From assembly GCA_041656735.1 (NCBI GenBank), contig JBBACY010000008.1:4041-68040 (forward strand): DNA of 64,000 nucleotides. Direction: 5' to 3'. How positions within the stretch are numbered: position 1 is the first letter of the stretch; each line of letters starts with the position of its first letter. The position numbers were made by a program, and so were the translations under genes. The stretch is from Bacteroidales bacterium (lineage in GTDB: Bacteria; Bacteroidota; Bacteroidia; Bacteroidales; Tenuifilaceae). This document shows positions 50,310 to 61,098 of the stretch, one piece after another. The notes under the pieces were generated by a model. That model did no database searches. It saw only the letters and a program-made list of their open reading frames with translations, and was not told the DNA's origin.

Positions 50310-51551
50310 GTGGATATATTTGATAAACTTAGACAAGGTATGGGGCCCATTGGTCAGTATCATAAAGAAGGGCATGGCTACTTTGCGTTTCCAAAACTAG
50401 AAGGCGAAATTAAACCGTGGATGACCTTTAGAGGTAAAGAGGTTTTAACCTGGAGTTTAAATAATTACCTCGGTTTGGCAAATCACCCTGAAGTGCGTAA
50501 GGCCGATGCCGAAGGGGCTGCTAAGTATGGTATGGCCTATCCAATGGGGGCACGAATGATGAGTGGGCAAACCAAACTCCACGAGGAACTTGAAGTAAAG
50601 CTTGCCGCTTTTGTTGGTAAACCAGCAGCATACTTATTAAACTATGGTTACCAGGGGATGGTTTCGATTATTGATTCGTTGGTATCGCGTAATGATGTGG
50701 TGGTTTACGATTCGGAGTCGCATGCTTGTATTATTGATGGGCTAAGGTTATTTCCCGGCAAACGCTTTGTATACGCACATAATGATATGGATAACCTGCG
50801 TAAGCAACTTACGCACGCAACTCGCCTTGCCGAAAAAACAGGAGGAGGAATACTTGTAATTACCGAAGGCGTTTTTGGAATGGCTGGCGACTTAGGTAAT
50901 TTGAAGGATATAGTTGCTTTTAAAAAGGAGTTTAGCTTCCGATTGCTAGTTGATGATGCGCATGGCTTTGGCACAATGGGTAAAACAGGATCTGGAGTAC
51001 CAGAGCATTTCGGAGTTCAAGATGAGGTGGATCTTCATTTTGCAACATTCGCGAAGAGCGGTGCGGGCATTGGTGCTTTTGTGGCGGCCGACGAGGATAT
51101 TATTAGGTATTTAGCTTATAATTTACGTTCGCAGATATTCGCAAAATCACTACCCATGCCTATGGTTGTTGGTGCTTTAAAACGACTAGAGGTAATGCAA
51201 TCGCAACCCGAGCTAAAGGAGAACCTTTGGAAAATTGTGGATGCTTTACAGAGCGGACTTAAGAAGGTTGGTTTGGATATTGGAGTAACCGAGTCGCCTG
51301 TTACACCAGTTTATATGAAGGGTAATGTGCCCGAAGCCACCAATATGGTTTTTGATTTGCGTGAGAACTACAATATTTTCTGTTCAATTGTGGTTTACCC
51401 AGTTGTTCCAAAGGGACAAATGCTATTACGCCTTATACCAACCGCTGTTCACACCCTCGAGGATGTTGAAATTACGATTAAAGCTTTTGCTGAGTGTGCG
51501 CAGAAGTTGAAGGATGGGAAGTATTACGCCGAAAAAATGTCGCAGATATAG
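50310..51551 (+). CDS. Alpha-oxoamine synthase family PLP enzyme, SulA/CapB-like cysteate C-acyltransferase candidate
   Basis: WSLNNYLGLA, MGARMMSGQT, HACIIDG, DDAHG, TFAKS (PLP Lys) and a second Lys 30 residues later in SQIFAKSLP; promoter TACTTTTG at 50263-50270. Confidence 0.8.
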   Translation: MDIFDKLRQGMGPIGQYHKEGHGYFAFPKLEGEIKPWMTFRGKEVLTWSLNNYLGLANHPEVRKADAEGAAKYGMAYPMGARMMSGQTKLHEELEVKLAAFVGKPAAYLLNYGYQGMVSIIDSLVSRNDVVVYDSESHACIIDGLRLFPGKRFVYAHNDMDNLRKQLTHATRLAEKTGGGILVITEGVFGMAGDLGNLKDIVAFKKEFSFRLLVDDAHGFGTMGKTGSGVPEHFGVQDEVDLHFATFAKSGAGIGAFVAADEDIIRYLAYNLRSQIFAKSLPMPMVVGALKRLEVMQSQPELKENLWKIVDALQSGLKKVGLDIGVTESPVTPVYMKGNVPEATNMVFDLRENYNIFCSIVVYPVVPKGQMLLRLIPTAVHTLEDVEITIKAFAECAQKLKDGKYYAEKMSQI

Positions 51552-51552
51552 A
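51422..51552 (+). repeat. Direct repeat copy 1 (3' end of the SulA-like gene)
   Basis: Ungapped match to 60941-61071 with 9 mismatches in 131 bp (manual alignment). Confidence 0.95.
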
Positions 51553-51740
51553 GTTGTAAAATGATTTTGTTTAGTTAATAAGATGTAATTTACTAGCCAA
51601 TTATAACTGCCATTTCTACTTACGTTTGGCTTCGTTCATTATATTTAATCAGGCTAACGGTAAGACTGAGTTACCTGCCTTGAGCGAAGGTGATTTAGAA
51701 GTATTGACTTGTTAATATACTAATGATACATATAAAGAGG

Positions 51741-51766
51741 AGGCTGTCTTTTTAGACAGCCTTTAT
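51741..51766 (+). terminator. Terminator hairpin after the SulA-like gene
   Basis: AGGCTGTCT-TTTT-AGACAGCCT followed by TTATT. Confidence 0.7.
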
Positions 51767-51905
51767 TGTGTTAAGTTCCAACCTCATTTGGATAATTTAT
51801 TACCATTTAGGCGTAAGCATAAATTTTATCAACTTAACAATTTAAGGGTTCTGTTGTTAACACATTTTAAATAACAGGATTTGTTTTACCCTTAAATTAC
51901 TAGGT

Positions 51906-52904
51906 ATGATTCGTGTTTGGCTTAAAGCGCTTAGGGTTATCCCAAAAGTTTCAAAACAAGAATGGGATAGTTACGATATCGTTTCAAGGTGGCTTATTTC
52001 AACCCGTGCCGCCGTTTTTATTATGACTGGACTTGCCGCAGCCATTGGTGGTTTGCTGGCATATCGATCGGGGAGTTTTTCTTGGCCCATCTTTTTACTC
52101 ACATTCTTCGGCTTAATCTTTGCCCATGCCACCAATAATCTATTAAACGATTATGTTGACTTTACAAAGGGTGTTGATAAGGATAATTATTTTCGTGCTC
52201 TCTACGGCCCACACCCACTCGAAAATGGTTTTCTCACCAAGAATCGTTTTATAACCTATATTGTTGTAACCGGGTTACTTGCTTTAGTGGCAGGGCTTGC
52301 CATTACCTATTTGGTTGGTTTGCAAACACTGTGGCTGCTTGTTCCTGGACTTTTTTTCTTGCTTTTTTACACCTGGCCACTAAAATACTATGGACTGGGC
52401 GAAATTTCGGTAGTTCTTGTTTGGGGGCCATTAATGATTGGCGGAAGCTATTTTGTTGTATCGGGTGGAGAATGGAGTAACTGGGTGGCATTGGTTAGCC
52501 TAGTGTATGCCTTTGGTCCAACAACGGTGCTGTTGGGCAAGCACGCCGATAAACTAGAGGCCGATAAGGCTAAAAACATCCATACTATTCCGGTTTTAAT
52601 TGGCCAAAAAGCTTCGCGCTACTCAATCATTGTACTTTGGGTAATTCAGTATGCCTTAGTAGCCTTTTTTGTTATAACGGGTCAGCTGGGGCCAGCAGTA
52701 CTATTGGTTTTACTATCAATACCAAAGTTTATTCAAATGACCAAGGTTATGCTCCAAAAACGACCAGAAGTGCAACCTGAGGGCAAAGAGGGGATAGGCT
52801 GGCCATTGTATTTGGTTAGTAGAGCATTCGTGTTTAACCGATCGTTTGGAATGCTGTTCCTGTTGGGTTTAATTGCCGATGTTATTATTCTGAAATTTTT
52901 CTAG
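51906..52904 (+). CDS. UbiA-superfamily prenyltransferase, MenA-like
   Basis: Multi-TM protein; first Asp-rich motif HATNNLLNDYVDFTKGVD, FYTWPLKYYGLGE; divergent second motif KHADKLEADK. Confidence 0.8.
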   Translation: MIRVWLKALRVIPKVSKQEWDSYDIVSRWLISTRAAVFIMTGLAAAIGGLLAYRSGSFSWPIFLLTFFGLIFAHATNNLLNDYVDFTKGVDKDNYFRALYGPHPLENGFLTKNRFITYIVVTGLLALVAGLAITYLVGLQTLWLLVPGLFFLLFYTWPLKYYGLGEISVVLVWGPLMIGGSYFVVSGGEWSNWVALVSLVYAFGPTTVLLGKHADKLEADKAKNIHTIPVLIGQKASRYSIIVLWVIQYALVAFFVITGQLGPAVLLVLLSIPKFIQMTKVMLQKRPEVQPEGKEGIGWPLYLVSRAFVFNRSFGMLFLLGLIADVIILKFF

Positions 52905-53028
52905 TGATAATTCAACCGCTTAAGTTATAACTGACGTATAGTGTGAAGCTCATTGCCTTTATAAATACAAAAACGGTTTATTGTTTATGTATATAGAGGT
53001 TTTTTAGTGCCCTTTAATATTCTTATTT

Positions 53029-54624
53029 ATGATAAACGCAGCCACAACAGTAATCAAAACCAACATAAAAAGGAGGTCTGACTCATTTGTTGAGAACTAT
53101 AAGGAAACTCAGATAATTATGGAAGAGTTTAAAACAGCAACATCTGCAGTTCTCAACAGAAACAACGATAGCTATGTGGTTAAGCACAGGGCAAAGGGTA
53201 AGATGACTGCCCGCGAGCGTGTTGATAGTTTAATTGATAAGAATACTACATTTTTCGAATTCTCAACCTTAGCTGCAAATGGACTTTACGATAATAAATT
53301 TCATAGTGCCGGAATTATTACTGGCATTGGTGTAATTCAGGGTATTGAGTCCATTATTATTGCAAACGACCCAACAGTAAAAGGAGGAACCTACGTAAAA
53401 GAAACGATTAAGAAACATCTTAGGGCTCAGGAGGTTGCACTTAATAACCATTTACCCTGTGTTTATATTGTTGAGTCGGGTGGAATATTTCTACCCGAAC
53501 AGGCTAATGTTTTTGCTGATCATGACCACTTTGGCAAAATATTTTACAACCAATCCAAGTTATCTGCTGCGGGTATTCCTCAAATTGCAATGGTTATGGG
53601 TTCTTGTACTGCTGGTGGTGCGTACATTCCTGCCATGAGCGACGAATCGATAATTGTTGATAAGCAAGGAACCATATTCCTTGCGGGGCCACCGCTTGTT
53701 AAAGCCGCTATTGGAGAAGAAGTAACTGCCGAGGATCTCGGCGGAGCCTATGTGCATACCCACATTTCGGGTGTAGCCGATCATTTTGCAAAAACAGAGG
53801 CTGATGCCATTCAAACGTGCCGAAATATTTTTGAGTACCTCCCAAAGCCTCGCAAGCATAGTAACAAATCCGAAAGTTTTGAGAAGCCACTATACTCTAT
53901 GGATGAGCTTTATGGGGTAATACACTCTCAAACTTCTCGCTGGATAGACCCATACGAAATTATTGCTCGGGTTGTTGATGGTAGTAAATTTCAGGAGTTT
54001 AAACCCAGCTATGGAAAAACCATAGTTACAGGCTTTGCTAAAATTATGGGGCAAACCATTGGGGTTATTGCCAATAACGGTGTGCTTTTTTCCGAGTCGG
54101 CGCTTAAGGCTACGCATTTTATTGAGATGTGTAGTATTCGAAAAATACCACTCGTTTTTTTGCATAATATAACGGGTTTTATGGTTGGTAAAAGTGCCGA
54201 ACAAAAAGGTATTGCAAAAGACGGAGCCAAAATGGTGCATGCGGTTGCCAATGCAAATGTTCCAAAAATCACCATCGTCTTTGGCCGCTCGCACGGTGCG
54301 GGCAACTATGCAATGGCAGGCCGTGCCTATAAACCTACACTACTTTTTGCATGGCCTAACTCCAAAATTTCAGTTATGGGAGGTCGTCAGGCAGCTGAGG
54401 TTCTCGGTAGCGTAAAGCAGAAAGGCGTTGAAGATATTGATGAGTTTAAAAAAGAAATCATAAAGCGTTACGAAGATGAAGCATCGGCTTACTTTGGCAC
54501 TGCGCGCCTTTGGGACGATGGTATTATCGATCCTGTGGATACACGAAAAGCAATTGCCTTGGGTTTATCTATTGCTGCTAACAAAGAAGTTCCGCATTAC
54601 AAGCCCGGTATTTATAGAATGTAA
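53029..54624 (+). CDS. Acyl-CoA carboxylase carboxyltransferase, methylcrotonyl-CoA carboxylase beta (LiuB-like)
   Basis: ANDPTVKGGTY, ESGGIFLP, GSCTAGGAY, FLAGPPLVKAA, NITGFMVG, GAGNYAMAGRAY, ARLWDDGIIDP. Confidence 0.9.
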   Translation: MINAATTVIKTNIKRRSDSFVENYKETQIIMEEFKTATSAVLNRNNDSYVVKHRAKGKMTARERVDSLIDKNTTFFEFSTLAANGLYDNKFHSAGIITGIGVIQGIESIIIANDPTVKGGTYVKETIKKHLRAQEVALNNHLPCVYIVESGGIFLPEQANVFADHDHFGKIFYNQSKLSAAGIPQIAMVMGSCTAGGAYIPAMSDESIIVDKQGTIFLAGPPLVKAAIGEEVTAEDLGGAYVHTHISGVADHFAKTEADAIQTCRNIFEYLPKPRKHSNKSESFEKPLYSMDELYGVIHSQTSRWIDPYEIIARVVDGSKFQEFKPSYGKTIVTGFAKIMGQTIGVIANNGVLFSESALKATHFIEMCSIRKIPLVFLHNITGFMVGKSAEQKGIAKDGAKMVHAVANANVPKITIVFGRSHGAGNYAMAGRAYKPTLLFAWPNSKISVMGGRQAAEVLGSVKQKGVEDIDEFKKEIIKRYEDEASAYFGTARLWDDGIIDPVDTRKAIALGLSIAANKEVPHYKPGIYRM

Positions 54625-54629
54625 AAAGT

Positions 54630-55433
54630 ATGGATAGTTACAACGAGATATGCATTGATACTAAAGGTGGTGTAACCACAATTTGGCTTAATAAACCAGA
54701 TTTGCATAATGCTGTAAGTATTCAGATGCTAGAAGAGTTGACCGATTGCTTTCACTCCATTGAGCAAATGGATAACGTTAGGGTCATCGTTTTAAGAGGT
54801 AAGGGTAAGTCGTTTAGTGCTGGTGCCAATCTTGTTAATATGCTTGCAGTTAGCAAGTCAGGTTACGAGCAAAACCTTGACGATGGGTACAAGTGGACTA
54901 GTTGTTTAAGTTCAATTGCAAGTTCAAGTAAGCCAACTATTGCCATTGCAACGGGCAACGTATTTGGCGGAGGGAATGGGCTTCTGGCAGCTGCCGATAT
55001 GGTGATTGCCGATGAGAATGCAATATTTTCGTTCTCAGAGGTGAAACTAGGTCTTGCCCCCTCAACAATATTACCTTATGTGTTAACTCGTGTTAACCAG
55101 CAAAAGGCTAAGTACCTAATGCTTACAGGCAAAAGATTTAGCGCAGCCGAAGGGTACGACTATGGTCTTGTTGATTTTTTAACACCCTCCGAAAAGATTG
55201 AAGCATTATTGAACTCAATCATCGCCGATTTACGTAAAGCTTCTCCCAGCGGGATTAAGGAAATTAAACGATTGATAAGGGAACTTGGACATTGCTCTAA
55301 CATTGATGAGGTAAACAACCTAACGGCCAACTCCATTGCCACTTTAAAAACATCTACAGAGGCTCAGGAGGGCATTAGCGCATTTATTGAAAAACGGAAG
55401 CCTTACTGGCTAGTTGAAAATGAAAACGAATAA
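54630..55433 (+). CDS. Crotonase-family enzyme, methylglutaconyl-CoA hydratase (LiuC-like)
   Basis: LNKPDLHNA, FSAGANL, GGGNGL (no first Glu) and FSEVKLGLAP (second Glu), as in bacterial LiuC-type hydratases; EAQEGISAFIEKRKP. Confidence 0.8.
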   Translation: MDSYNEICIDTKGGVTTIWLNKPDLHNAVSIQMLEELTDCFHSIEQMDNVRVIVLRGKGKSFSAGANLVNMLAVSKSGYEQNLDDGYKWTSCLSSIASSSKPTIAIATGNVFGGGNGLLAAADMVIADENAIFSFSEVKLGLAPSTILPYVLTRVNQQKAKYLMLTGKRFSAAEGYDYGLVDFLTPSEKIEALLNSIIADLRKASPSGIKEIKRLIRELGHCSNIDEVNNLTANSIATLKTSTEAQEGISAFIEKRKPYWLVENENE

Positions 55434-55454
55434 GATAATCTGAAAGATAAGAAT

Positions 55455-56597
55455 ATGCATCATCCATTAATAAACAAACAGCATAATGACCTTCGTGAAC
55501 AAGTTCGTATTTTTGCTGAAAAGGAGATAAAGCCATTGGCTCAAGGGCTCGATGAACGAAGCGAGTTTTCGGTTGAACTAACCAAAGCGATGGGTAAAAT
55601 TGGACTCTTCGGAATGAACCTACCTGTGGAGTTTGGCGGTCGAAATCTCGACACCCTTTCATACATCATCGCCGTTGAGGAGTTGGCGCGGGTTGATAGT
55701 TCCCAGGCGGCTACTATGGCTGCCCATAATTCGTTGGGAATTACTCCAATTTACAAGTACGGCAATAGTGAGCAGCAAAAACGTTTGCTGCCTAGTTTAA
55801 CCTCAGGCGAAGGCGTTTGGGCATTTGGTTTAACCGAGCCCAATGCTGGTTCTGATGCCCGAGCCATTGAAACTACAGCGCTTCTTAAAACCAATCAATG
55901 GGTTGTAAATGGTCAAAAGATATTTATAACCAACTCGGCATCAGAGTTATCCAAGGGAGTAACTCTATTGGCCAACACAAGCGATAAGGAGGGTCAAAAG
56001 GAATTCTCAGCCATTATTGTCGAGAGGGAGGTATCAGAATACAAAGCAGAACCAATTCATAATAAGATGGTTTGGCGGGCTGCCGATACGGGGCTGTTAA
56101 CATTTAATAATACCATTGTTCCAGAACAAAATTTGCTTGGCGAGCGTGGAAGAGGGATGCATTATATGTTGGAAACCTTAGATTCTGGTAGACTTTCAAT
56201 TGCTGCAGTTGGACTTGGTTTGGCGCAAGGAGCATTCGAAATGGCGAATGCGTATGCTAAAAAAAGGCATCAGTTTGGCAAGTCACTATCGAAAATTCAC
56301 GCTATTTCCGATAAGTTAGCCGAAATGGATATTAAGCTCGAATTGGCAAGAAACTACCTTTACTACAGCTGTTGGCTAAAGGATAATAACCTGCCTTTTA
56401 AAAAGCAGGCTGCCATCTCGAAACTATATACATCCGAAATTGCTAAGCAGATAGCCGACGAAGCCGTTCAGATTTTTGGCGGTTACGGACTGTTTAAAAA
56501 TAATGATATTGAGCGTTTTTACCGCGACCAGCGTATTCTGGGTATTGGAGAAGGAACTACAGAAATTTTGAAATTGGTGATTGCCAGGAGTATATAA
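55455..56597 (+). CDS. Acyl-CoA dehydrogenase (short/branched-chain type)
   Basis: FGLTEPNAGSDA, NGQKIFITN, RLSIAA, AVQIFGGYG, RFYRDQRILGIGEGTTEI. Confidence 0.92.
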   Translation: MHHPLINKQHNDLREQVRIFAEKEIKPLAQGLDERSEFSVELTKAMGKIGLFGMNLPVEFGGRNLDTLSYIIAVEELARVDSSQAATMAAHNSLGITPIYKYGNSEQQKRLLPSLTSGEGVWAFGLTEPNAGSDARAIETTALLKTNQWVVNGQKIFITNSASELSKGVTLLANTSDKEGQKEFSAIIVEREVSEYKAEPIHNKMVWRAADTGLLTFNNTIVPEQNLLGERGRGMHYMLETLDSGRLSIAAVGLGLAQGAFEMANAYAKKRHQFGKSLSKIHAISDKLAEMDIKLELARNYLYYSCWLKDNNLPFKKQAAISKLYTSEIAKQIADEAVQIFGGYGLFKNNDIERFYRDQRILGIGEGTTEILKLVIARSI

Positions 56598-56658
56598 CTT
56601 TTTCAAAGAAGAAACTCAGGCTTTCGGGGTAAAAACATAATTTACAGAGTTGTTAACT

Positions 56659-57966
56659 ATGAGTAATTCACAATATATTAACGGATTTTCAAAGCTAAGC
56701 AACAGCGAAAAAATCTCGATTATTGTTTCGCGTACTAACATTGCTATTGAACAGTTTAATGTGCTGAACCAATTTAAACTACAAAATACTGAAATACAGA
56801 AGCAGCTAAATGAGATTAGCGAAAACGTAGTATCCAACTATATGCTGCCTTTTAGCATAGCTCCTAACTTTATGGTGAATGGCAAGGCTTACTTTGTGCC
56901 AATGGTTATTGAGGAAAGTTCTGTAGTTGCTGCTGCATCGGCTGCGGCAAAATTTTGGTTCAATCGGGGTGGGTTTGTTGCCAAGGTAATTTCTACCATA
57001 AAGGTAGGGCAGGTGCATTTTAGGTGGCTGGACAATTCAAAGCAATTGAAATCAGAATTTGAAAACATTAAAGAGCGATTGATAGCAAGTTCCTCGCATT
57101 TGCTCGAGAATATGCGAAGGCGCAATGGGGGTATTGTTGATATTGAATTGATTGATTTTACCAATAAACTTGAGAACTACTACCAGGTAAGGGTTAAGTT
57201 TGAAACTGCCGATGCAATGGGAGCCAACATTATCAATTCGGTTCTTGAAGAGATGGCGCAGGCGTTAAAACAATATTTTTTTGAGCATTTTAGCGATGCT
57301 GAATCCGAATGCGACATTGTAATGGCAATTCTATCAAACCATACCCCCGAGAGCATTGTTGAGTGCTATGTTGAGTGTGATATTGATGATTTGGCGGAAA
57401 TTTCAGGCGAGCTATCGCCAATGGAATATGCTCAAAAATTTAAGCTGGCCGTTGATATTGCAAACGTCGATATTTACAGGGCTACAACCCACAATAAAGG
57501 AATCTACAATGGGGTTGATGCCGTTGTACTGGCTACCGGAAACGATTTTCGTGCGGTTGAGGCTTGTGGTCACTCTTACGCTGCCCGAAATGGGTACTAC
57601 AAAAGTTTAACAACTGTAGATATCGATAAGGGCAAATTTCGATATACGCTTCGTATTCCTATGGCACTGGGAACGGTGGGGGGATTAACCAATCTTCACC
57701 CCTTGGCAAAACTCTCGCTCGATATTTTGGGTAAGCCATCGGCTAAAGAGCTAATGGCAATAGTTGCAGCAGCAGGACTTGCAAATACATTTTCGGCAGT
57801 TCGGGCGCTTACTACCTCCGGAATTCAGAAGGGACATATGCGATTTCATCTAAATAATATTTTAAGTTTGCTAAACGCAACCAATGATCAGAAAGAGCGG
57901 GCAGAGGAGTACTTTAAAAACAGGAAGGTTTCGCATAAATCTGTACAAGAATTTCTAGGAAGTTAA
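56659..57966 (+). CDS. mvaA: Class II HMG-CoA reductase
   Basis: ENVVS, PMVIEESSVVAA (Glu), DAMGAN, THNKGIYNG (Lys), GNDFRA (Asp), IQKGHM (His); ATG 56659 (ORF track starts at TTG 56650). Confidence 0.95.
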   Translation: MSNSQYINGFSKLSNSEKISIIVSRTNIAIEQFNVLNQFKLQNTEIQKQLNEISENVVSNYMLPFSIAPNFMVNGKAYFVPMVIEESSVVAAASAAAKFWFNRGGFVAKVISTIKVGQVHFRWLDNSKQLKSEFENIKERLIASSSHLLENMRRRNGGIVDIELIDFTNKLENYYQVRVKFETADAMGANIINSVLEEMAQALKQYFFEHFSDAESECDIVMAILSNHTPESIVECYVECDIDDLAEISGELSPMEYAQKFKLAVDIANVDIYRATTHNKGIYNGVDAVVLATGNDFRAVEACGHSYAARNGYYKSLTTVDIDKGKFRYTLRIPMALGTVGGLTNLHPLAKLSLDILGKPSAKELMAIVAAAGLANTFSAVRALTTSGIQKGHMRFHLNNILSLLNATNDQKERAEEYFKNRKVSHKSVQEFLGS

Positions 57967-58006
57967 ATCTATTCTTTCTGTTTTGCATAACTAATAGTTT
58001 CATTCA

Positions 58007-58924
58007 ATGTACGCTAAATTCTACGCCCACGGAAAGCTTCTTATCACGGGTGAGTACTTTGTACTTGCAGGTGCCAAAGCATTTGCACTGCCCCTTAAAC
58101 TTGGCCAAAGTTTGCAGGTTGCGGAGGTAGAGGGCGATAGTAGGATTATAAAATGGCAAACCACCGTACAGGGTAGTAGCTGGTTTTCTGCGGAGTTTAA
58201 ACTTGATGATTTTTCGATTATCAACACAAACAGAATAAAATCAGCAGAGTACATTCAACTTTTATTAATCTATATTAATCAAAAAAGTTTGGTCTTCAGA
58301 AACTTAAAAAGACAGTTAATACTTGCGGCTAATGTTGATTTTCCAATGGATTGGGGCTTGGGTAGCAGCTCAACGCTAATATCAAACTTGGCAAATTGGG
58401 CGGGCATAGACCCATACAGTATGCTGTTTGCCGTTTCCAAAGGGTCGGGTTACGATATTGCTTGCGCCACCGCAAAAGGGCCAATACTATATAGTAATTT
58501 GGTTAAACCTACGGTAGAAAAGGCGTGTTTCAATCCCAGTTTCGGCGAGAACCTTTACTTTGTTTATTTGGAAAGAAAGCAGGATACAGCAATAAGCATC
58601 AATTTGGTAGGTTCTAAAATTTTTGAGCAAAAGGATGAGGCAAAAAGAATTACAGAGCTTGCCAAACTTGTGATAAACTCCAAAAGTCTTGATGAGTTTA
58701 ATGGCTATTTAAATGAGCACGAGGAAATTGTGTCGAGGGCAATAGGTTTGCCAACGGTTAAGTCAGAGCTGTTTAATGATTTTACAGGAACTGTAAAATC
58801 GTTGGGTGCTTGGGGTGGCGACTTTGTTTTAGCCACTCATCGTGGGACAGTCGATGATGTTGTTAACTACTTTAAACAAAAGGGTTACAGCGTAATACTC
58901 AAATATAATGATATTGTGCTATGA
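58007..58924 (+). CDS. GYDIA-type GHMP kinase, phosphomevalonate kinase candidate
   Basis: HGKLLITGEY, WGLGSSST, SGYDIAC, KSLGAWGGDF. Confidence 0.8.
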   Translation: MYAKFYAHGKLLITGEYFVLAGAKAFALPLKLGQSLQVAEVEGDSRIIKWQTTVQGSSWFSAEFKLDDFSIINTNRIKSAEYIQLLLIYINQKSLVFRNLKRQLILAANVDFPMDWGLGSSSTLISNLANWAGIDPYSMLFAVSKGSGYDIACATAKGPILYSNLVKPTVEKACFNPSFGENLYFVYLERKQDTAISINLVGSKIFEQKDEAKRITELAKLVINSKSLDEFNGYLNEHEEIVSRAIGLPTVKSELFNDFTGTVKSLGAWGGDFVLATHRGTVDDVVNYFKQKGYSVILKYNDIVL

Positions 58925-60024
58925 GCCATTTGCCACAAAGCAAAAAGTATTTAAAGGATGCCGAAAGCCTTACGTTTTTTGAGCTTTCCAGTCCTAAAAG
59001 TGTAGGTTGGGAAAGCCCATCGAATATTGCATTGGTAAAGTATTGGGGCAAGTATGGCGAGCAGCTGCCTCAGAATCCTTCGTTAAGTTTCACGCTTAAG
59101 CATTCTAAAACCATTACCCGAATTGAATATCAAAAGAAGCAGAAAGAATTGCCATTGCTTGAATACTATTTTGAGCAGAAGCAAAATATTGAATTTGAAG
59201 ATAAGGTTCGAAAATACCTTGACAGAATTTCAATTTACATTCCTTTTATAAAGAGACTTGATTTACTTATATACAGCCAAAATACGTTTCCGCATTCGGC
59301 AGGTATTGCCTCTTCGGCATCGGCATATAGCGCATTGGCGCTATGTTTATGCAGTATTGAGAATGAGTTATTTGGCAAGCTCAATGATACCCGTAAGTTT
59401 CTCCAAAAAGCATCGTTTTTGGCACGGTTGGGGTCGGGTAGCGCTTGTCGTTCAACCTATGGCGAGTTGGTTCTCTGGGGCGAAACCAAGAGTGTAAAAG
59501 GTTCGAGTAATGAGTCTGCCATTGAATTGAGAAGCGAAGTAAATTCTGTTTTCAAAAACTATTTTGATGCAATTCTCATAATCGACTCGGGCAAAAAGGA
59601 GCTTTCCAGCACCCTCGGGCACGGTTTAATGCAAAACCATCCATTTGCTACTGCTCGGTACGAGCAGGCTAGGCAAAATTTAGATAAAATTTTAGAAAGT
59701 CTAAAGATGGGCGACGAGCGGAATTTTGCTCAGATTGTTGAGAACGAGGCAATTACGCTGCACGCCCTACTTCTGTCATCGGTTCCATCGGTCTCGCTAC
59801 TTAAGCCAAACACGCTAGTGGCTCTCGAGAGGTTAAAGGCTTTTAGAACGAGTAGTCAACTTAATTTCACCTTTACGCTCGATGCAGGTGCCAATATCCA
59901 CATACTTTATAAAGCCTCAATTAGGACACAAATGGTTGATTTTATTACAAGTAACCTAACAGAACTATGTGAGAATGGACTTTGGATTGATGATGAAATT
60001 TCTACAGGACCCAATAAACTATAA
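58921..60024 (+). CDS. mvaD: Diphosphomevalonate decarboxylase
   Basis: SPSNIALVKYWGK, FPHSAGIASSAS, RLGSGSACRS, FTLDAGAN; ATGA overlap with the upstream kinase. Confidence 0.93.
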   Translation: MSHLPQSKKYLKDAESLTFFELSSPKSVGWESPSNIALVKYWGKYGEQLPQNPSLSFTLKHSKTITRIEYQKKQKELPLLEYYFEQKQNIEFEDKVRKYLDRISIYIPFIKRLDLLIYSQNTFPHSAGIASSASAYSALALCLCSIENELFGKLNDTRKFLQKASFLARLGSGSACRSTYGELVLWGETKSVKGSSNESAIELRSEVNSVFKNYFDAILIIDSGKKELSSTLGHGLMQNHPFATARYEQARQNLDKILESLKMGDERNFAQIVENEAITLHALLLSSVPSVSLLKPNTLVALERLKAFRTSSQLNFTFTLDAGANIHILYKASIRTQMVDFITSNLTELCENGLWIDDEISTGPNKL

Positions 60025-60036
60025 CCATACAAATTT

Positions 60037-60906
60037 GTGAAATACTTCAATTCTAAAATATTGCTATTTGGCGAGCATACGGTTCTCTATGGTTCCGATG
60101 CATTGCTAATGCCATTTTCAGGTTTTTCGGGTAAGTTCGATTTTATTTCAAATAATCAGTGCAACGACGACAAGTTGGTATCACACAAAATACTAGTTGC
60201 ATTTTCAGAATTCGTTGAGAAATCAGATTTTGCAAATCTTTTTAATAGTTCGCAGATTGCTTCGGAACTCAGCAAGGGACTTTACTTTAACTCTAATATC
60301 CCCATAGGTTATGGTGTAGGGAGTTCGGGTGCGATGGTAGCCGCATTTTATCGCAAATTTAAAATTGAGAAGGAAGAGAGGGAAATTGAAGAGGTACGAA
60401 GGATACTTGCTGAGCTTGAATCCTATTTCCACGGGACCAGCTCAGGCCTCGACCCATTGGTTAGCTATCTGAATAAACCATTACATAAAAGCAATAATGT
60501 AAATCAGGTGGATATTGAACTTTCTCCATTCAATGCATTTATAGTTGACACGGATATCTCCCGTTCTACGCAAAATCTGGTAAATGATTTTAAAGCTAAA
60601 GCAGGAGTTTCTGATTTTGAAAATTTGGTAATACCAGCTATCGTAAAAAGTACAAACGGATGCATTAAAGCAATTCTGAATGCAGATTTTGACGATTTCT
60701 TTTCTAACCTAAGGGAGCTATCCGCTTTACAATTTCAGCATCTGCAAGAATTTATCCCAGTCGATTATCGCTTTCTATGGAAAAAGGGGCTTAATACCGA
60801 TGGCTTTTACCTTAAACTATGCGGTGCGGGTGGTGGTGGGTACATTTTAGGGTTTGCTAAAAAATCTAGCGGACTGCCTAAAAGCAAGAAACTAATTATA
60901 TTGTAG
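60037..60906 (+). CDS. mvk: Mevalonate kinase
   Basis: KILLFGEH, SNIPIGYGVGSSGA, HGTSSGLD, KLCGAGGGG; GTG start. Confidence 0.85.
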   Translation: MKYFNSKILLFGEHTVLYGSDALLMPFSGFSGKFDFISNNQCNDDKLVSHKILVAFSEFVEKSDFANLFNSSQIASELSKGLYFNSNIPIGYGVGSSGAMVAAFYRKFKIEKEEREIEEVRRILAELESYFHGTSSGLDPLVSYLNKPLHKSNNVNQVDIELSPFNAFIVDTDISRSTQNLVNDFKAKAGVSDFENLVIPAIVKSTNGCIKAILNADFDDFFSNLRELSALQFQHLQEFIPVDYRFLWKKGLNTDGFYLKLCGAGGGGYILGFAKKSSGLPKSKKLIIL

Positions 60907-60940
60907 CCTTTATTCACCCAATTGTTTTAAAGCCTCAAAA

Positions 60941-61071
60941 GCTATTGCGCCTTATACCAACCGCTGTACACACCCTCGAGGATGTTGAAATCACGATTAA
61001 TTTTTTTGCTGAGTGAGCGCAGAAGTTGAAGGATGGGAAGTATTACGTCGAAAAAATGCCGCAGATATAGA
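60941..61071 (+). pseudogene. Direct repeat copy 2: detached, decaying 3' end of the SulA-like gene
   Basis: 122/131 identical to 51422-51552; TGT(Cys) changed to TGA in frame; no upstream gene body. Confidence 0.92.
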
Positions 61072-61098
61072 TTTTTAAACACTATTAATACATACAAA

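Follow-up and report, generated by a model that had tools for sequence, protein, structure and literature searches.

In the 64,000-nucleotide stretch analysed here (the window; contig JBBACY010000008.1 of assembly GCA_041656735.1, from a landfill bacterium of the order Bacteroidales, family Tenuifilaceae), the gene at positions 53029-54624 encodes a carboxyltransferase (CT) of the type that forms the beta subunit (MccB) of 3-methylcrotonyl-CoA carboxylase (MCC). It lies in a block of eight genes that joins leucine degradation to the mevalonate pathway, and neither the block nor the rest of the genome was found to encode the biotin carboxylase (BC) on which MCC relies. New here is an alpha-less, remodelled MccB clade in a Bacteroidales leucine-to-mevalonate operon, located on a transferred island in a host without BC. 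From comparative sequence analysis, we read the protein as the CT half of an MCC whose own alpha subunit (MccA) was deleted in an ancestor of this Tenuifilaceae clade; the carboxyl groups for the CT step probably come from another biotin enzyme. The explanation as a whole, an alpha-less MccB in a mobile leucine-to-mevalonate cassette with carboxybiotin supplied in trans, has in our judgement about an even chance of being correct.

MCC is the textbook case in which a CT is organised around a dedicated alpha subunit. That a conserved and selected clade does without this subunit implies that foreign carriers can serve such a CT or that its chemistry has changed, and the clade persists in genomes without any BC. 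If the carboxyl group were drawn from methylmalonyl-CoA or oxaloacetate, an ATP-free route from leucine or isovalerate to isoprenoid units would exist in anaerobes.

The carboxyltransferase and its alpha-less clade

The CT gene and the crotonase gene that follows it are intact and on the same strand, with the crotonase start five bases after the end of the CT gene:

53029-54624, forward strand: MccB-type CT of the alpha-less clade, 531 amino acids; PF01039 over its full length, E 4.8e-145
54630-55433, forward strand: enoyl-CoA hydratase/crotonase of the LiuC/AtuE type, 267 amino acids; PF00378, 1.6e-47

The sequence-only reading had recognised an intact MCC beta subunit, and this identification was borne out. 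The PF01039 match spans residues 52-523, and the best solved relatives are the MCC beta subunits of human (2e-180), mycobacteria (AccD1, 4e-176) and P. aeruginosa (6e-169). Matches to other classes are weaker, with 8e-122 for geranyl-CoA carboxylase (GCC), ~1e-75 to 1e-79 for propionyl-CoA carboxylase (PCC) and 12S, and 1e-46 for GcdA. The protein is a full-length, two-domain carboxyltransferase nearer to MCC beta than to PCC, GCC or Gcd. It shares with MCC beta (MccB/LiuB/AccD1; PDB 8J4Z, 3U9R, 4Q0G) the complete CT fold, both oxyanion-hole pairs, a methylglutaconyl-CoA hydratase as the next gene and an acyl-CoA dehydrogenase (ACAD) nearby. Unlike MCC beta, it has no cognate alpha subunit (BC, BT and BCCP (biotin carboxyl carrier protein) domains, joined with beta in an alpha6beta6 holoenzyme) in operon or genome. 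It further differs in belonging to a clade with a long stem, in which 21 of the 203 near-invariant positions have been substituted and the lid loop is shorter, and in its setting, a mevalonate operon that is carried by a transferable block.

The loss of MccA is apparent from a comparison of operons. Nineteen loci, the window and 18 others with a CT at least 75% identical to that of the window, form what we call clade A (Tenuifilaceae, including Perlabentimonas gracilis); a further 16 loci from Lentimicrobiaceae, Marinifilaceae/Ancylomarina and other Bacteroidales encode a CT that is 58-63% identical together with MccA. The gene order in the MccA loci is CT, hydratase, MccA (~660 amino acids, BC plus BCCP) and ACAD. 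In clade A it is CT, hydratase, ACAD, HMG-CoA reductase (HMGR), kinase, diphosphomevalonate decarboxylase (MVD) and mevalonate kinase (MK), with an optional UbiA-type prenyltransferase gene at the head and an optional type 2 isopentenyl diphosphate (IPP) isomerase (IDI-2) gene between ACAD and HMGR. The MccA slot between hydratase and ACAD is empty at all 19 clade-A loci. The IDI-2 gene, which encodes a divergent protein of 330 amino acids, occurs at ten of them (L040:13580-14572 and nine others) and was identified by TIGR02151 (3e-59, below cut-off) while giving no Pfam match; no copy was found in the genome of the window. At one locus, L044, IDI-2 and HMGR read as a single frame of 627 amino acids.

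In several MccA-bearing genomes the HMGR gene shares a contig with the MCC genes and is separated from them by a few kb. The block of the window has the organisation expected of a leucine-to-mevalonate operon, in that liu and lower-mevalonate genes are colinear and meet at HMG-CoA, with neither HMG-CoA synthase (HMGS) nor HMG-CoA lyase. These features, like the co-occurrence of HMGR and CT, are shared with the MccA-containing leucine-to-isoprenoid operon of other Bacteroidales, from which the window block differs by the absence of MccA and IDI-2, by UbiA at its head and by a host without any BC. Elsewhere, MccB is found beside a separate BC of ~495 amino acids at loci of Acidobacteriota and Poseidoniales. 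Two further observations concern individual loci. In Ancylomarina-type clusters (L060:14471-16264 and other Marinifilaceae loci) a gene of the AtuA family, 597 codons long, lies between MccA and ACAD. A Bacteroidales-type alpha-less block with a 78% identical CT is present on a contig labelled Thiohalospira sp. of the Pseudomonadota (L048, JBKHIH010000008.1). Its IDI-2 is 97% identical to that of a Bacteroidota metagenome-assembled genome (MAG), and the Thiohalospira label is probably a binning or labelling error.

In a quick tree search with 81 MccB sequences the alpha-less clade is monophyletic (SH-aLRT 100). No internal branch of the tree is longer than the stem of this clade (0.79 changes per site), whereas branches within the clade are short. 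Measured against 62 MccB sequences outside the clade, most of them encoded beside a BC gene, 182 of 203 columns conserved at 97% or more are kept and 21 differ. Both oxyanion-hole pairs are intact as well: A195/G196 and A424/G425 of the window CT align with A218/G219 and A447/G448 of human MCC beta, which form the oxyanion holes for the acyl-CoA and biotin carbonyls (10.1101/2024.04.30.591959). Fixed in the clade are changes in motifs that do not vary elsewhere, namely DSGGA to ESGGI, FPD to FAD, AATGE to AAIGE, FLQNITGF to FLHNI(T/S)GF, GS(F/Y)GAGNY to RSHGAGNY and PR to P(N/T), as well as a deletion of ~10 residues. In the alignment with human MCC beta, I228 belongs to the CT-N helix, and the missing residues map to the CT-C lid helices; these elements shut over the acyl-CoA pocket and shift along with biotin (10.1101/2024.04.30.591959). 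The CT dN/dS is 0.059-0.065 at dS 0.25-0.44 when the copies of three BC-less genomes, the sisters G004 and G011 among them, are compared; against the congener G013 it is 0.08-0.09. With 0.13-0.15 for the hydratase in divergent comparisons and 0.09 for HMGR against G013, the CT ranks with the block's most strongly constrained genes. The pattern, a burst of change at the loss of MccA followed by strong constraint, agrees with an active enzyme whose partner is new or whose mechanism has been altered.

Biotin carboxylase and biotin carriers

The genome of the window (G000) is a draft MAG of 3.57 Mb in 128 contigs, 97.8% complete, with the window on contig C8; the genomes compared with it are likewise MAGs. 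The sequence-only reading had noted that block and window contain neither a BC nor an MKM-type carrier. This holds, with no biotinyl-domain protein encoded on contig C8, and the absence of BC extends to the whole of G000: PF02785 (Biotin_carb_C) gave no match, PF02786 (CPSase_L_D2) only weak ATP-grasp matches, a tblastn search with the 506-residue BC of a congener no match, and tblastn with two MccA proteins matches through their BCCP domains only. A co-evolving MCC alpha subunit elsewhere, the finding that would have refuted the sequence-only reading, was sought by the same searches and none was found in G000. The BC-BCCP-CT operon of the congener G013 (UBA5349) has no orthologue in G000. Loss of BC in an assembly gap was considered for the one syntenic site checked and rejected there, as the orthologue of the gene flanking the G013 operon is encoded midway along a contig of 76.8 kb. 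BC was also not found in six other MAGs of the genus, so that the BC-less set comprises G000, G001, G003, G004, G007, G009 and G011. BC is also missing from the Bacteroidales genomes G026, G028, G030 and G038, and several of the BC-less genomes are of high quality.

Two free biotin carriers with the AMKM motif are encoded elsewhere in G000, each beside one of the two other CTs of the genome. On contig C55 the search for a Na+-pump beta subunit revealed a complete operon for a Na+-pumping methylmalonyl-CoA decarboxylase (epimerase, MmdA, OAD-gamma, a BCCP of 147 amino acids (MmdC) and OAD-beta), which makes the decarboxylase suggested by the sequence-only reading mechanically possible. On contig C31 a CT and a BCCP of 139 amino acids are encoded as a pair directly upstream of purL. 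MmdA and the C31 CT each score ~800 bits with the mmdA subfamily model. MmdA, the purL-linked CT-BCCP pair, OAD-beta and a tandem carboxyltransferase of the 5S/OadA type are retained in the BC-less genomes of the genus. FabF is present in those that were checked (G000, G001, G004 and G011); because these genomes keep FabF, malonyl-CoA is needed and carboxylation without BC must already occur. The combination of FabF with a lack of BC is seen in several high-quality Bacteroidales genomes.

A protein of 1106 amino acids encoded on contig C27 (G000:C27:12985-16305), next to nrfHA-like cytochrome genes, is built from a unit of HMGL-like plus PYC_OADA domains that occurs twice in tandem; it is of the OadA/PycB/5S type and has no biotinyl domain. 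Proteins of ~1110 amino acids with this build are common across the family, in genomes with and without BC alike. We considered such proteins as a replacement of BC and rejected the idea, as they show no anti-correlation with BC; the C27 protein is retained as a possible carboxyl donor only.

Direction of the pathway and source of the carboxyl group

The remaining genes of the block are as follows:

51906-52904, forward strand: UbiA/MenA-like prenyltransferase, first gene of the block; PF01040, 1.6e-31; upstream of the CT gene at most clade-A loci
55455-56597, forward strand: ACAD with three ACAD domains; 58-63% identical to the ACAD of operons with the order CT, hydratase, MccA, ACAD
56650-57966, forward strand: class II HMGR; PF00368, 1.3e-87; TIGR00532, 280 bits, above cut-off
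58007-58924, forward strand: GHMP kinase of the GYDIA family, presumed phosphomevalonate kinase; NF040656, 4.8e-99, above cut-off
58921-60024, forward strand: MVD-like protein; PF22700 and PF18376; TIGR01240, 1.6e-43
60037-60906, forward strand: MK-like GHMP kinase, last gene of the block; TIGR00549, 1.3e-27

All eight block genes are intact. The hydratase, whose best NCBIfam match is gamma-carboxygeranoyl-CoA hydratase (1.6e-60, below cut-off), is read as 3-methylglutaconyl-CoA hydratase and is syntenic with the hydratase of the MccA operons; on the same basis of synteny the ACAD is read as isovaleryl-CoA dehydrogenase. UbiA is likely a consumer of prenyl diphosphate. In three runs, Logan contigs from RNA-labelled libraries overlap the CT, UbiA, hydratase, GYDIA kinase and MVD genes with an identity of at least 99%, and those of a fourth run overlap a related block; these contigs hint at expression of the block and leave transcription unproven.

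Among 41 relatives screened, 19 encode the CT. HMGR is present in 17 of these 19 and in none of the 22 genomes without the CT. HMGS (PF01154, PF08540) was detected neither in G000 nor in any of the 17 HMGR-bearing genomes, whereas bacterial and archaeal controls were positive. HMG-CoA lyase was not found in G000, G011, G004 or G013; in one MccA-bearing relative it adjoins MCC. Given the coupling of HMGR to the CT and the lack of both HMGS and lyase, the block is the sole recognisable source of HMG-CoA and HMGR its sole recognisable sink. The ancestral direction can be taken to be carboxylation since relatives retain the ATP-dependent MccA in an equivalent operon. Forward flow from leucine via HMG-CoA to mevalonate is favoured on these grounds and a reversed route of the myxobacterial type disfavoured; the 'degradative' label of TIGR00532 was not used as evidence of direction. 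This speaks against a backward run from HMG-CoA to primers of iso-fatty acids, which the sequence-only reading had offered as one option. The myxobacterial reverse route depends on MvaS and on AibA/B, a decarboxylase that is not a CT (PMC5389471); AibC is a further component of this alternative isovaleryl-CoA (AIB) pathway. It has a substrate of the (methyl)glutaconyl-CoA type in common with the window CT, but AibA/B do not have the CT fold and the MvaS they need was not found (PF01154, PF08540) in G000 or the HMGR-bearing relatives, AibA/B homologues themselves not having been searched for. A functional parallel to the window cassette is the leucine-to-sterol route via HMG-CoA of trypanosomatids (PMC5993337). 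We found nothing specific in the literature on a bacterial leucine-fed mevalonate pathway, on Tenuifilaceae and mevalonate, or on BC-less Bacteroidales.

In the proposed pathway, ACAD would oxidise leucine-derived isovaleryl-CoA to 3-methylcrotonyl-CoA, the window CT would carboxylate this to 3-methylglutaconyl-CoA and the hydratase would convert the product to HMG-CoA. HMGR would then form mevalonate, three further enzymes IPP, and UbiA a prenylated product. The CT would still be biotin-based and would receive carboxybiotin in trans from a carrier of the host. In congeners with a free-standing BC-BCCP-CT operon, BC could charge this carrier using ATP. In G000 the carrier may be MmdC (C55) or the BCCP of the purL-linked CT (C31), charged without ATP from methylmalonyl-CoA via MmdA or the C31 CT, from oxaloacetate via the 1106-residue 5S/OadA-like protein, or by reversal of the Na+ pump MmdB. 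In the simplest version, methylmalonyl-CoA or oxaloacetate would load a free carrier, from which the window CT would pass the carboxyl group to 3-methylcrotonyl-CoA. The sequence-only reading had considered a partner borrowed in trans; this is the interpretation we favour, with the restriction that the borrowed part can only be the biotin carrier, as G000 has no BC. Flux direction, biotin dependence, the carrier used and the carboxyl source are all inferred.

Loading of a carrier by reversal of a Na+ pump has reportedly been described in older work by Dimroth. In Na+-pumping biotin decarboxylases CO2 is transferred to biotin in a step of its own that does not depend on Na+, and transcarboxylases save the ATP by using this chemistry (PMC8085960). 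Parts for a BC-independent transfer are present in G000 as donor-side CTs (the 12S-like MmdA and the C31 CT), the 5S-like C27 protein and small AMKM carriers. They resemble the 12S, 5S and 1.3S components of the propionibacterial methylmalonyl-CoA:pyruvate transcarboxylase, in which a CT is likewise served by a carrier charged elsewhere (PMC8085960); their association with the window CT is our proposal only. Actinobacterial acyl-CoA carboxylases with shared alpha subunits offer a parallel for a CT served by a carrier held in common. More tentatively, and with a probability well short of even, the alpha-less MccB of BC-less members could act as the accepting half of a methylmalonyl-CoA (or oxaloacetate):3-methylcrotonyl-CoA carboxyltransferase that needs no ATP, one arm of a BC-free carboxylation economy that would also make malonyl-CoA for FabF. 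We know of no transcarboxylase with 3-methylcrotonyl-CoA as acceptor. If true, this would be a new transcarboxylase specificity with possible use in pathway engineering. Labelling experiments and enzyme tests are feasible in P. gracilis, a cultured relative that has both the alpha-less cassette and a BC.

Several observations weigh against supply of the CT by a host carrier or against its proposed role. None of the 18 related clade-A loci has a BCCP, BC or OAD gene within 10 kb, and no physical or co-evolutionary link of the window CT to any carrier emerged. The 21 changes in 203 near-invariant columns, several of them beside the biotin and acyl-CoA sites, and the shortened lid loop could mean an altered reaction and not only an altered partner. 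Within the genus, the block is present in seven of eight BC-bearing genomes and in three of seven without BC (one-sided hypergeometric probability ~0.1, for genomes that are kin and not independent), a pattern that would fit a block working best with a BC. The nearest solved structures to the ACAD are of the Bcd/SCAD type, Bcd being reductive, and not classical isovaleryl-CoA dehydrogenases. The MEP pathway is present (IspH is nearly universal among the relatives), which makes the cassette an accessory beside it and not essential. Finally, the absence of BC from a MAG of 128 contigs is strong and not absolute.

The distribution of the block and its dispensability beside the MEP pathway would also be expected if the cassette needed the BC and BCCP of a host and were a mere passenger in BC-less genomes, with the CT and the other genes idle, recently acquired and heading to loss. 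Recent import (96% nucleotide identity to G011, against 69-75% in the left flank) and a CT split into two frames in another genome of the genus, G002, agree with this. An idle cassette is difficult to reconcile with eight intact genes, with a CT dN/dS of 0.06 at dS 0.25-0.44 among three copies all from BC-less genomes and with the location of the closest copies (G011, then G004) in genomes that likewise lack BC, and the near-identical RNA-library contigs overlapping the CT and four other block genes argue weakly in the same sense; we regard such a relic as unlikely. Still less probable in our view is a CT working as a decarboxylase, which would pass CO2 from 3-methylglutaconyl-CoA to a carrier. 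Decarboxylation of this carrier by MmdB would be coupled to Na+ pumping, as in glutaconyl-CoA decarboxylase, and the resulting methylcrotonyl-CoA would be reduced by the Bcd-like ACAD to isovaleryl-CoA for iso-fatty acids. The CT half-reaction is reversible, the Na+-pump set on C55 (OAD gamma, BCCP, OAD beta) is complete, the ACAD is closest to Bcd/SCAD enzymes, and loss of an ATP-using subunit fits a change of direction. Such a decarboxylase would have no source of HMG-CoA, given that none of the 17 genomes with HMGR gave a match for HMGS, with archaeal-type controls positive, and the known reverse route of myxobacteria uses MvaS and AibA/B instead of a CT (PMC5389471). HMGR, the three GHMP-type enzymes, UbiA and, at ten sister loci, IDI-2 are all anabolic and draw on HMG-CoA. 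The Na+-pumping glutaconyl-CoA decarboxylase (GcdA-D) resembles the present case in its (methyl)glutaconyl-CoA type of substrate and in a Na+-pump beta subunit and carrier encoded in the genome; these belong to the mmd operon, OAD and BCCP genes are missing near the clade-A loci, HMGS is absent, and GcdA itself is distant (1e-46, against 1e-180 for MCC beta).

MdcD/E are CT-fold subunits of a biotin-independent malonate decarboxylase. By analogy, the CT might have been remodelled after the loss of MccA into an enzyme that acts directly on CO2 and 3-methylglutaconyl-CoA, without any carrier. The length of the clade's stem (0.79 changes per site, the longest internal branch), the clade-fixed changes beside both half-sites (DSGGA to ESGGI, FLQNITGF to FLHNITGF, GSFGAGNY to RSHGAGNY) and the loss of ~10 residues from the part of the lid that shifts when biotin and acyl-CoA bind (10.1101/2024.04.30.591959) would agree with this, as would the lack of a linked carrier gene at every clade-A locus examined and the anaerobic, CO2-rich habitats of the organism. 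On the other hand, the biotin-side oxyanion pair is kept, as are 182 of the 203 positions invariant in the family, a carboxylation without assistance has to run steeply uphill, and the family matches that bear on the analogy to MdcD/E are weak here. We consider a biotin-independent enzyme improbable.

Mobility of the block

The edges of the block are marked by a direct repeat that derives from the neighbouring gene:

50310-51551, strand not given: alpha-oxoamine synthase (serine palmitoyltransferase (SPT)/BioF/Kbl family), here called SPT/BioF-like; below every equivalog cut-off
51400-51560, no strand: left copy of the direct repeat, 161 nucleotides, at the 3' end of the SPT/BioF-like gene; left block edge
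60919-61079, no strand: right copy of the direct repeat, 161 nucleotides, 89% identical to the left copy, a displaced SPT-like 3' end; right block edge

The block is inserted at the 3' end of the SPT-like gene. In P. gracilis (G006) this gene and the right-flank gene are immediate neighbours, which represents the empty site, and the block of this genome is located elsewhere. The block contains no integrase and may have entered by homologous recombination. Homology to the blocks of congeners begins at 51764-51821. The window and G011 are 96% identical in nucleotide sequence over 51764-60351, where the stretch stops at the end of the G011 contig, and nothing upstream matches. The left flank is 83% identical to the block-less sister G001 and 69-75% to G011, G004 and G013; likewise, PurL of G000 is 90% identical to that of G001 and 85% to that of G011. 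In the PurL tree G000 falls away from the group of G013, G004 and G011, and in the CT tree it falls inside this group. As judged from these comparisons, a BC-less genome has acquired the cassette by transfer or recombination, and the nearest copies (G011, next G004) are also in BC-less genomes.

In the BC-bearing congener G002 (87% complete) the CT gene is split into two frames covering residues 3-277 and 281-531 (G002:C357:1318-2909) and no HMGR was found in this genome, where the block may be decaying. The purL genes of the sister MAGs G004 (G004:C190:16032-18251) and G011 (G011:C153:13465-15684) each contain one in-frame TAG, the remainder being 85-86% identical to PurL of G000.

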